Shown piece by piece: positions 47,004 to 52,831 of a stretch of 64,000 nucleotides of DNA. The translations under genes and the position numbers were made by a program. A model generated the notes under the pieces. That model was given only the letters and a program-made list of their open reading frames with translations, made no database searches and was not told the DNA's origin. Source of the stretch: Lama glama (Eukaryota); assembly GCA_028534125.1 (NCBI GenBank), contig CM052824.1, forward strand, positions 60,636,001-60,700,000. The letters run 5' to 3'. Each line of letters begins with the position of its first letter. Position 1 is the first letter of the stretch.

Positions 47004-49537
<2,534 letters not shown>

Positions 49538-49542
<5 letters not shown>

Positions 49543-49700
49543 GAGCGCCGGCCGCTGAGCTCACGCCGCCGCCCCGCCCCGCGCCCCGCCCCGCTCCGCG
49601 CAACCGCCCCGCCCCGTGCGTCGTCTGGGGCCGCGCGTCCGCCTCAGCCGAGCGCCGGCCAGGAATGCGCCCGCCCCCCGGCCGGCTCTTCCAGGAACGC
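49538..49700 (-). promoter_or_regulatory. TATA-less SKI core/proximal promoter
   Basis: Inr-like YYANWYY at 49538-49544. Three perfect Sp/KLF decamers GGGGCGGGGC (minus strand) at 49571-49580, 49583-49592 and 49606-49615. TEAD-type GGAATG at 49662-49667. STAT GAS element TTCCAGGAA at 49689-49697. Confidence 0.65.
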
Positions 49701-49722
49701 GCGCTCCCCCCGCCCGCGCTGG

Positions 49723-49927
49723 GCACTCAGACCCACTCGGCCGTGCTCGGGCCCGACCGCCCCGGACTCGGGCCCCCTCGGCTCCGCTCGGCCCCGCCCG
49801 TCTGGGACTCGGCTCTGCTCGGCTCCTCTCGGGCCGGCCCGCCCAGGACTCGGGCCTGCTCGGCTCCGCTCGTCCCCTCCCGCCGGGGATTCAGCCCCGT
49901 TCGGCTCCGTTTAGCCCCGCCCGCCGG
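49723..49927. repeat. Degenerate tandem minisatellite, 5 x 41 bp
   Basis: Units start at 49723, 49764, 49805, 49846 and 49887 and align without gaps. Consensus is approximately GGACTCGG-N5-CTCGGCTCCGCTCGG-SCCCGCCCGCC-NN. Confidence 0.85.
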
Positions 49928-52831
49928 AAGGCGGCTCCGCGGGGGTGGCGGCGGCGCCCCGGGCCCCCCATCCGGCGGAGGCCGCTTCCTGCGCGGCTGC
50001 GAAGGCGCGCGGCCCCGTCACCGCCGGAGCCCAGTAACCCACACACAGACCCCACCACAACCGCAAACCAGCTGAGGGGCAGACCGGACGGGGCTGTGCA
50101 CCCTCCACCGCACACTCCCGGCCTCCGGGGTCCCCACGCACACGACGGGAACGCCACGCGACACACCCCGGCGGTCCCCGCACGCGACAAGGACGCCACG
50201 CAGTATGATCCAACTCTCACGTAGGACAGGAACACCAACGACACAACGTGGGTCCCTACACACATTACAGTTGCGACGCCCCGGAGACCCCACGCAGGAG
50301 ACAGACACCATGCAGCGTGTTCCGACAGCCCCACGCGATGCAGGCACCGCACAGCACCCCTCCAAGGGATGACTGGTGCAAGAGCGGCCCCCCTTTGACC
50401 CTGCATCCTGGTCCCTCCGCACGGCCAGCGACGTCATCTCCCACCAGCCCCGTGCAGAGCTGCGTCTCCACGGGCAGGGCTTGCACCCTCGGCGCTGTGG
50501 CCCGTGCTGTCCGGCCAGGTAGCCGCCAGGGCAGGCCCGTGTTGAGTCCTCAGGGACCGGGCTCCGTTCCTCCCGCAGACTGACGTGACCCCGTACAGCC
50601 TCCTTGTCCAGAGAGCCGTTCACACATCTGAGGGATACCCAGGGCATGGCCAGAGGGAGAACCCACTGTGTGTCCTTCCATAATCTGGCTGTATCGTTGG
50701 GGAGAGACCAACCAGAAAGTGCTGGGTGGGACAAGCCTGGGGCCTGGACTTGGACAGACTGTGCTGGGTGGCCCCCGGAGGAGGCAGCATCCAGCAGAGG
50801 CCTGGGGGCTGGGGACTCGAGGTGAGGAGGACAATTCTGGCTGCACTCAGCCCGAGGCAGAAGGACAGTCCAATCGAGCTGGGCAATGACCCCTTTTCCT
50901 CTACAGGACAAAGGCATCTAAGCTGGCCTGAACACGTGGGGAGTCGTGGGGGGTGCCCACAGTGGTGGGCAGGGGCCAGCGGGCCACACTCACTTCAGCC
51001 CTTGTGACCTGACGCTCATCGCCTGCTGCTGCCTCCCCAGTGGGGGCTGGAGGTGGCCCCAAAGCAGCACTCCTCAGGGGCCGTGTCTGCCCTGGGAGCA
51101 CCCGGCTGTGTCTGCAGGCCTCAACTGCCCCTCAGGCACGGGCAGGCATCTGGAGGGGCACCGAGGATGGCCAGGTAACCCCACACCTATATGGCAGACA
51201 CAGGCAGGTGCCTGGGCACCTTGAGGTTCAGAGGTAGTGCTCCGCCTTCAAACACCAGGCCTTTCTGTGAGGAAACCCTCGCCTGCCCTCGCCTGTGCCC
51301 TGGGGGGCTGTCCCTTCCACTCGTCAATCCAGTGCCCCCAGCACAAGGCTTTTCTAGGCAAACATGAGAAAACTAGGAAAGGGATATTTAAAAAACAAGA
51401 AAAGGGACTTCTTTGCTTTCAAAGGCTGTATTCATGGTCCTCATTTGGACCAAAAGCATGTCTGTGGCACCTGAGAGAGTTGATTCCTTCCACGTGGACT
51501 TGAGTCCCATGCAGACAGCCTGTACGTGAGAGAAGGCGGTTGGAGCTCCAGAGGGCCGGCCTGGAGGGGCTCCCGGCCGAGCACACAATTTCTCCAGCTC
51601 CTCTGGCCAAGCGGGCGCGCCCAGGTGGGCTCCGAGCCCGAGGCCCCCAAGCCCGAGGCCCCCCAGACGCGCAGGGCTGGCTCCCTGTGCTTCCTCCCTC
51701 TGCCCTCTGGCTTTGCAGGGTTCCAGGAAGGTGTCTCGGGAAGGGGCCAGGTGGAGGAGCCAACACTCCCACAGCTTCAGAGCCCAGAAGGAAGCCGAGG
51801 TGGGTGTGCAGGAGGGTGCAGGGGATAGGTGAAGGGTGAAGGGCCCAGAGAAGTAAGGAGGGACTGCTCTGGTCTCTAAAATGTCTCTGCCTCCATGGAC
51901 TTTGAGGTCGTCTTCCCCAAAAGATAATGGAGCTTCTGGAGCAGCCAAGCCCACCCTACCCACCAAGGGCCAGGGCAGCTGTGCCTGGAGTGAGTCAGGC
52001 AGGCCCTGTCTTCTCCACAAGCCCAGCTGGGGGGGGCTCCCACATGCTGGCCTTCCTGCCTCCAACCCATCCCAGCAGCTGCCCTGGCCAGTGGCCTGCT
52101 CCTCCCACTGTCCCCTGCCACAGGCCATGCACCACACTGGCAGGTGGGGGGTCCAGGCCACAGGCACTGCCATGTCAGGGGACGGGGACAGGAACCAGCG
52201 AGCAGCAGGCACCAGGCCCGCCCGGCTCACTCTCCAGCCCTTGCCATGCTGACTGACGGGTGTGGGCAGCTGGTGGTGCACACGCTCACCCCCGCATGCG
52301 CACACGCTTGTGGAGATTATACCCCCATGTGCACGAGCCAGGCCTTGGGACCAGGAGGATGGAGACCAAGTTCTGCCCCACGTGGCCTCCATCTCCTCCA
52401 GCTGAGGAGGCGAAGGATTGACAAACCTGCCTATAGGGGACGTGGTCACTCAGGTGCTGCGGAGGCCTCCAGGGGCTGGGGGCTGGCTTTGGAGCCAGCA
52501 GCGCTACAGGCCAGAGATGAGGGCGCTGGCAGTGATGGGGCGCCCCTGGCCTCAGGGCCAGCTCAGAGGCCCGGCTAGGGAAATGGGCTGGAAGGCTCAG
52601 AAAAGCAGGCCCCGACAGAGACCCCCGAGAGACAGCTTCTGGGGGGAATGGCTCTGCCCTGCTTGACTTCCACCTGCCACCTGTTCCCTGCTCCGTGGGA
52701 AGGAAACACCTGGTCTCAGACAAGCACAGCTGCATTGTCAGGAACGTGCTAAGATACTGTTCTAAAACCTTAAATTCTAAACAAAAATTACTCAGGTAAC
52801 ATGAGCTTGGTAAAAAGTTAGAAAAGACTTT

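Follow-up and report, generated by a model that had tools for sequence, protein, structure and literature searches.

A degenerate 41 bp tandem array in the CpG island upstream of SKI

A five-unit array and its setting

The 64,000-nucleotide stretch of DNA analyzed here (the window) contains a 205 bp tandem array of five 41 bp units, located at 49723–49927, which is the strongest tandem repeat of the window as scored by Tandem Repeats Finder (TRF). The array is real, old, and apparently undescribed, and it is of a kind – the GC-rich promoter minisatellite – that is already known. Judging from the sequence, there is about an even chance that it is an ancient promoter minisatellite that likely serves as a flexible array of Sp/KLF-type GC boxes; a role as a nucleosome or phasing device of fixed length is improbable.

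A preliminary description of this DNA reported five consecutive units of exactly 41 bp (here U0 to U4) that align without indels, and all five are present, letter for letter, where it placed them. Several observations bear on the periodicity. First, TRF, one of the checks proposed at that time, recovers the 41 bp period (5.3 copies, 49708–49927, 73% matches, 1% indels, score 191), counting in a partial sixth unit at 49708–49722 that is represented by its GC-box end only. The program also calls the array at a period of 82 (score 229), and none of its remaining rows (107 rows in the window) scores above 99. Second, the units are 63–85% alike in pairwise comparisons made without gaps (26–35 of 41 positions), and the three 41-mers on each side of the array match the units at only 10–20 of 41. 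Third, the identity of the array with itself at a lag of 41 is 0.75, whereas the best of 5,000 dinucleotide shuffles, scanned over lags of 20–69, is 0.53; 20,000 shuffles of its pentamer blocks and 20,000 of its decamer blocks also fall short (maxima of 0.63 and 0.70, respectively). The period thus survives all three types of shuffle, and because the block shuffles never reach the observed identity, it is not just a by-product of the inner 5 and 10 bp repeat. An 82 bp dimer was considered as the underlying unit and rejected: identity at lag 82 (0.71) equals that at lag 41 in the same comparison (0.715), and only U1 and U3 are closer to one another.

Each unit opens with a 3-nt lead, followed by three decamers of the CTCGG type and a GC-box-like end, and the CTCGG-like pentamers at 10 bp spacing and the terminal GC-box-like run that had been reported are both evident in this parse. 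The unit can also be read as eight pentamers plus one base, with A or T in the fifth position of 21 of the 40 pentamers and T recurring at every fifth position; its length may come close to four helical turns just because it is built from eight pentamers of a CTCGG-type repeat and one additional base. The gene-proximal unit U0 (49723–49763) is the most diverged, with 10 differences from the five-unit majority. There are three differences in U1 (49764–49804), seven in U2 (49805–49845), four in U3 (49846–49886), which is identical to U1 at 35 of 41 positions, and eight in the distal unit U4 (49887–49927), the end of which is overlapped by an ETS-like CCGGAAG. All 32 are substitutions (10 of CpG type), there are no indels, and the two end units have the highest counts. 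A GC-box match at 7–8 of 9 positions is found in all five units, so that at the level of sequence there is one per unit, as in an Sp/KLF GC-box array; the perfect 8-mer, CCCCGCCC, is present only in U1 (at 49792) and U4 (at 49915), just as previously reported. Within the window, and with classes of columns that were drawn post hoc, 11 of 115 cells in the CTCGG and GC-box columns depart from the majority versus 21 of 90 in the linkers (p 0.011).

The downstream gene is SKI, a growth regulator and a dosage-sensitive brake on TGF-beta/Smad signaling. It is on the minus strand with its ATG at 48749, and its ORF has matches to Ski chains in the PDB (E 2e-28) and to the Pfam family Ski_Sno_DHD; the first coding exon (47781–48749, minus strand) extends for 323 codons to a GTGAGT donor and is partly N. 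The array is positioned 974–1,178 bp upstream of the ATG, with N stretches in between. Only this distance is firm, the start site being predicted and not mapped, and we use the term promoter to mean the upstream island DNA. The setting, a CpG island on the upstream side of a gene (GC 0.80–0.82 and CpG o/e 0.93–1.04 in the covering bins), is that of GC-rich promoter minisatellites, as are head-to-tail units that fall in the range of ~10–60 bp and are repeated beyond chance. Word shares in sequencing runs are at least half in 14 of 24 rows, of which nine carry a flag as a possible source and the remaining five (three organism codes, three studies) are at 0.85–0.96, and are 0.16–0.29 in six RNA runs; since these shares are not placed on the sequence, they have no bearing on the array or the start site.

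On its gene side the array is adjoined by a block (49575–49722) that contains GC boxes and a pair of CCAGGAA-led copies at a spacing of 32 bp, and on its distal side by the remainder of the CpG island (49928–50406), which serves as a control for rates. The motif CCGCCC is present eight times per 205 bp in the gene-proximal DNA versus four times in the array, and with twice as many copies nearer the gene the array may be redundant. Other repeats are present in the vicinity: a second and fainter set, CACG-led and with spacings of 42, 73, and 81, lies upstream of the array at 50134–50310; a pure CGG repeat of 8.7 copies lies on the gene side of the array, before the SKI ATG, at 49471–49496; and a two-copy, 27 bp in-frame repeat in SKI exon 1 (48530–48582) encodes an Ala/Pro-rich linker.

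Orthologous arrays in three relatives

Orthologous DNA from three relatives was read through spurious ORFs that are translations of public contigs, and the unit sizes are therefore inferred from protein. A close relative, P0002 (one Logan contig, the one match among 3,147 candidates, E 5e-35), tracks the minus strand of the window from 50406 to 49727. In its array a single residue is changed over 66 codons, without indels, versus 14 changes in ~160 codons and three frameshifting indels in the distal flank (Fisher p 0.073 for changes and 0.027 with indels; Poisson 0.021), although this is a single contig that was found with an array-containing query and is open to ascertainment. The two more distant relatives, P0003 (Logan, E 3e-11) and P0004/P0005 (ENA, one cluster of two, E 2e-5), are the only two matches among 1.84 billion representatives. 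Because P0003 and P0005 align to the window at the nucleotide level on both sides of the array, their orthology is established.

From anchor to anchor, the array is 205 bp long in the window and in P0002, and, as derived from residue counts, 178 bp in P0005 (27 nt shorter) and 252 bp in P0003 (47 nt longer). A wrap-around parse, using a parser that made 10 bp jumps cheap and contigs in which short-read assembly errors are possible, yields units of ~45, 41, 51, and 41 bp in P0005 and of 27 (partial), 42, 31, 31, 41, 42, and 41 bp in P0003; the translation of the window itself, parsed in the same way, yields 1+42, 41, 41, 41, and 41. In P0005 the ~45 bp unit is the counterpart of U0, and a 31-nt stretch across U2 and U3 is missing so as to leave a single 51 bp unit, which is directly visible as a 17-residue in-frame repeat step; U4 is 41 bp in all three relatives. 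As read from these contigs, the array is old; its units are most often of 41 bp, but both this size and the total of 205 bp are subject to change. The units differ from one another by 15–37% versus a flank difference of ~4% in the close relative (an estimate from residue changes), and the duplications would therefore be far older than that split.

These comparisons qualify the proposal in the preliminary description that the length of the array is conserved while its sequence drifts. The array is indeed old, orthologous in three relatives, and most commonly built of 41 bp units, but units of 31, 42, ~45, and 51 bp are also present; it is free of indels in P0002, but total length and unit size vary in P0003 and P0005, and so between lineages. 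The associated suggestion of selection on spacing may still hold: the array has changed more slowly than its flank in P0002 (p 0.02–0.07), but a strict 41 bp phase is not kept. Most of the changes in unit length are of whole decamers, as would be expected from slippage and from phase-keeping to the same degree.

The extent of conservation varies along the island. In the two distant relatives the minimum numbers of mismatches are 1/58 and 7/147 in the proximal block, 17/174 and 20/205 in the array, and 12/125 and 24/199 in the distal flank; by these counts conservation of the array is comparable to that of ordinary island DNA and falls below that of the adjoining proximal block. Among the detectable orthologue changes, 8 of 22 are in motif columns versus 48% expected (p 0.18, in four gap-free blocks of 80 codons with the gapped parts excluded), and the evidence for constraint on the motifs is mixed, if suggestive. 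The CCAGGAA-led copies in the proximal block (26 nt, 85% alike, 49659–49716) have diverged less than the array in the distant relatives, and from their sequence they appear to be the stronger candidate for a regulatory element.

CTCGG decamer runs elsewhere in the genome

A DNA search of the whole genome with the array returned five matches at three places, one of which is the array and the other two of which are copies of a single decamer run. A dispersed repeat family was rejected, there being no further genome matches in a search that skips simple repeats and thus leaves uniqueness unproven. The best other match is a run of 40 CTCGG decamers in a CpG island on C1050131 (L002 and L003; G000:C1050131, near 45.6 kb and 1.62 Mb). 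This island is an inverted duplicate with 100% identity over 3,116 bp, and the pair is either a large palindrome or an assembly duplication.

Four CTCGG pentamers at 10 bp spacing are found in 46 overlapping matches at 12 places, versus 20 matches for a reversed-pattern control. CpG o/e is at least 0.83 at 10 of the 11 places examined, the twelfth being the identical inverted copy. Two of the runs adjoin the starts of genes of the Tweety and COE/EBF families, and three adjoin ORFs that we take to be UBE2M, ZNF276, and PLPP5, although neither of the two that were tested was assigned to a family by Pfam. The commonest linker letters in the other runs match the middle linker of the SKI array, and none of the 11 other decamer loci examined has a 41 bp higher-order period with GC boxes. 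Triplets of CTCGG occur at 10 bp spacing in 87 matches at 33 places, at 9 bp in 24 matches at 24 places (17 if eight identical small-contig copies are counted once), and at 11 bp in seven matches at seven places, all place totals having been counted by hand; CACGG triplets at 10 bp spacing occur in 19 matches at 15 places. Relative to the reversed control, whose pattern is in part the same pentamer rotated, there is no excess of CTCGG triplets (control matches number 94 at 10 bp, 60 at 9 bp, and 48 at 11 bp, with 41 for CACGG).

Some of the individual loci have features of their own. A near-perfect nine-copy decamer run (L011 1200–1835; G000:C11) contains eight copies of GGCTCG and is flanked by several ETS-like CCGGAAA sites. 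Decamer or pentamer runs of CTCGG are also present in CpG islands at L006, L009, L016, L019, L023, and L025, four of which adjoin recognizable coding starts, and these runs possibly represent a small class of promoter repeats.

Possible origin and roles of the array

A plausible history for a flexible Sp/KLF-type array begins with a CTCGG pentamer repeat that decayed to decamers, followed by the tandem duplication of a block of three decamers and one GC box before the sampled lineages split. Units would subsequently have gained or lost whole decamers (giving 31, 41, and 51 bp), and the array whole units, by slippage or unequal exchange, and the end units would have decayed fastest. Binding of Sp/KLF proteins would be expected from established knowledge of GC boxes, and with one box per unit their occupancy could be additive; exact unit length and copy number would matter little, and the array would help to keep the SKI island open and unmethylated. 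A role for Sp/KLF proteins would be the simplest function that remains after consideration of the other readers and structures (ZBED6, (CCGNN)n, G-quadruplex, folding, and Rfam families). Several observations nonetheless count against a GC-box role, namely the similar divergence of array and distal flank in the two distant relatives, the p value of 0.18 for motif versus linker changes among the orthologues, and the presence of only two perfect GC boxes out of five together with more CCGCCC motifs nearer the gene.

A somewhat doubtful alternative is that the array has no job of its own and is the neutral relic of an old minisatellite that persists since unmethylated CpG-island DNA mutates slowly. 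Divergence in the two distant relatives like that of the distal flank, with many gaps, the variation in copy number and unit length, and the outcome of the motif test among orthologues would all fit this, and human AGCCG microsatellites, which are built from the same pentamer, score as less conserved in one study (regression coefficient −1.2; PMC3516246). It accounts less well for an array that is slower than its flank in the close relative, for a unit plan that survives in all three relatives, and for 32 substitutions without an indel, the chance of which is 0.02–0.2 at assumed indel ratios of 1/8–1/20. We regard it as unlikely that TCGG/CCGA, recurring at each helical turn beside the GC box, is read by a specific factor, with selection allowing mainly 10 bp changes, and with ZBED6 (core GCTCG) as a candidate. 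The inferred units do cluster at 31, 41–42, and 51 bp, and CTCGG triplets occupy more places at 10 bp spacing than at 9 or 11 bp, but identical 10 bp steps would be expected from slippage of a decamer derived from pentamers, unit-length changes of +1 and +4 also occur, and the reversed-pattern control is equally frequent at 10 bp (94 versus 87 matches). Both of these explanations remain because steps of 10 bp are expected from slippage and from phase-keeping alike. Distinctly unlikely is the broader proposition that CpG-island repeats of TCGG/CCGA, one for each helical turn, constitute an undescribed class of mammalian promoter element read by a specific factor, of which SKI would be the best-kept member, with units quantized at 31, 41, and 51 bp so as to hold this factor and Sp/KLF on one face and with unit number tuning SKI dosage between species.

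It is very improbable that the array is part of an upstream SKI first exon or of a divergent RNA and acts at the RNA level. The start site of SKI is only predicted, and similar decamer runs at other genes do sit between promoter motifs and the ATG, but there is no excess of folding (z 0.37), no Rfam match in 49560–50700, and the ORFs over the array break frame between relatives. Least probable of all, and extremely so, is a nucleosome device, whether by a single nucleosome being positioned over the 205 bp or by nucleosomes being excluded in the manner of (CCGNN)n. The original work on nucleosome-excluding (G/C)3NN repeats reportedly dates from 1996. The (CCGNN)n repeats, described as nucleosome-excluding, are like the SKI array in being 5 bp periodic, GC-rich promoter DNA (PMC1173084), and the five 41 bp units keep within 28 degrees of phase at 10.2 bp per turn, with a drift of 137 degrees at 10.5 bp per turn. 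However, the orthologous arrays of 178 and 252 bp depart from the nucleosome-repeat length that had been suggested for the 205 bp, and nucleosome positioning is poorly matched by six WW dinucleotides in five units and a T rhythm of 5 bp, not 10 bp. The array was also rejected as a (CCGNN)n-type excluding repeat: its longest [(G/C)3NN]n run is six pentamers, and its score of 24 is what base composition gives (shuffle mean 23.4, with 2,394 of 5,000 shuffles reaching the score), with scores of up to 30 in the neighboring DNA.

Three further candidates were rejected. A protein-coding role was set aside as ORFs over the array match only single-contig ORFs whose frame breaks between relatives; searches with these ORFs gave no hit among 68 candidates for proteins of near length, and in a profile search of 7,981 scored sequences returned only their own two members. 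There is no canonical four-tract G-quadruplex motif within the array (with loops of up to 12), such motifs being located nearer the gene. A hairpin is not indicated by the folding of the SKI-sense strand using DNA parameters, the z value being that given above.

The Sp/KLF-type reading has well-known counterparts. Mouse Dhfr has 48 bp GC-box repeats, and SV40 has its 21 bp repeats. Together with the Sp1 repeats of ALOX5, these resemble the SKI array in having tandem units near a GC-rich start, a GC box in each, and a variable copy number; the SKI array, which is known from its sequence alone, differs in its inner decamer repeat, in copies that are 63–85% alike, and in variation that is between species. 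The ALOX5 promoter is described as containing a tandem repeat of Sp1 sites (PMC13179450, PMC3566118), and G/C-rich tandem repeats are common at promoters according to one of these reports (PMC3566118). Promoter microsatellites of AGCCG/CTCGG likewise share their pentamer, their CpG-island context, and their start-proximal position with the array (PMC3566118, PMC3516246), and AGCCG microsatellites score as poorly conserved (PMC3516246); the array differs from them in its higher-order 41 bp repeat.

The authors of the preliminary description knew of no account of the array, and none was found in a literature search whose coverage lacks most subscription papers, including older work on the c-ski promoter; the accessible portions of PMC5909421 and PMC5976475 do not mention the repeat. 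Regulation of the Ski gene is characterized as poorly studied in a review, which names SRF, PPAR-delta, and retinoic acid (PMC5992185), and MYB sites have been mapped elsewhere in the SKI locus (PMC5976475). If the array is additive Sp/KLF padding or is neutral, then it is one more promoter minisatellite. As an orthologous array that changes by whole decamers, it provides a natural series with which to ask whether 10 bp steps derive from slippage or from selection for helical phase.

The candidacy of ZBED6 can be considered at individual sites. ZBED6 binds GCTCGC/GGCTCG (PMC2780926, PMC3979763), and the mouse ChIP table includes a Ski peak (34 reads) located at +328, which is downstream of the annotated start (PMC2780926 Table S1). 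The SKI array is like ZBED6 targets in its GCTCG core, present five times (versus four in the neighboring 205 bp), in its CpG island, and in the mouse Ski peak (PMC2780926, PMC3979763). It is unlike them in containing neither GCTCGC nor GGCTCG, while perfect sites are located ~200 bp toward the gene and in SKI exon 1, and the mouse peak, 328 bp downstream of the start, likewise appears to lie toward or inside the gene; with these defining motifs absent, the array was rejected as a ZBED6 target element. In the same table a peak is present at one of four other array-bearing genes, with that at Ebf3 being additional. Upstream of the COE/EBF-family gene in this genome (L022 1200–1835; G000:C23), five perfect GCTCGC sites lie beside a decamer run, and the mouse Ebf3 gene has a strong ZBED6 peak at −478 (PMC2780926 Table S1). 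By its sequence, this locus appears to be a better candidate for ZBED6 than the SKI array.
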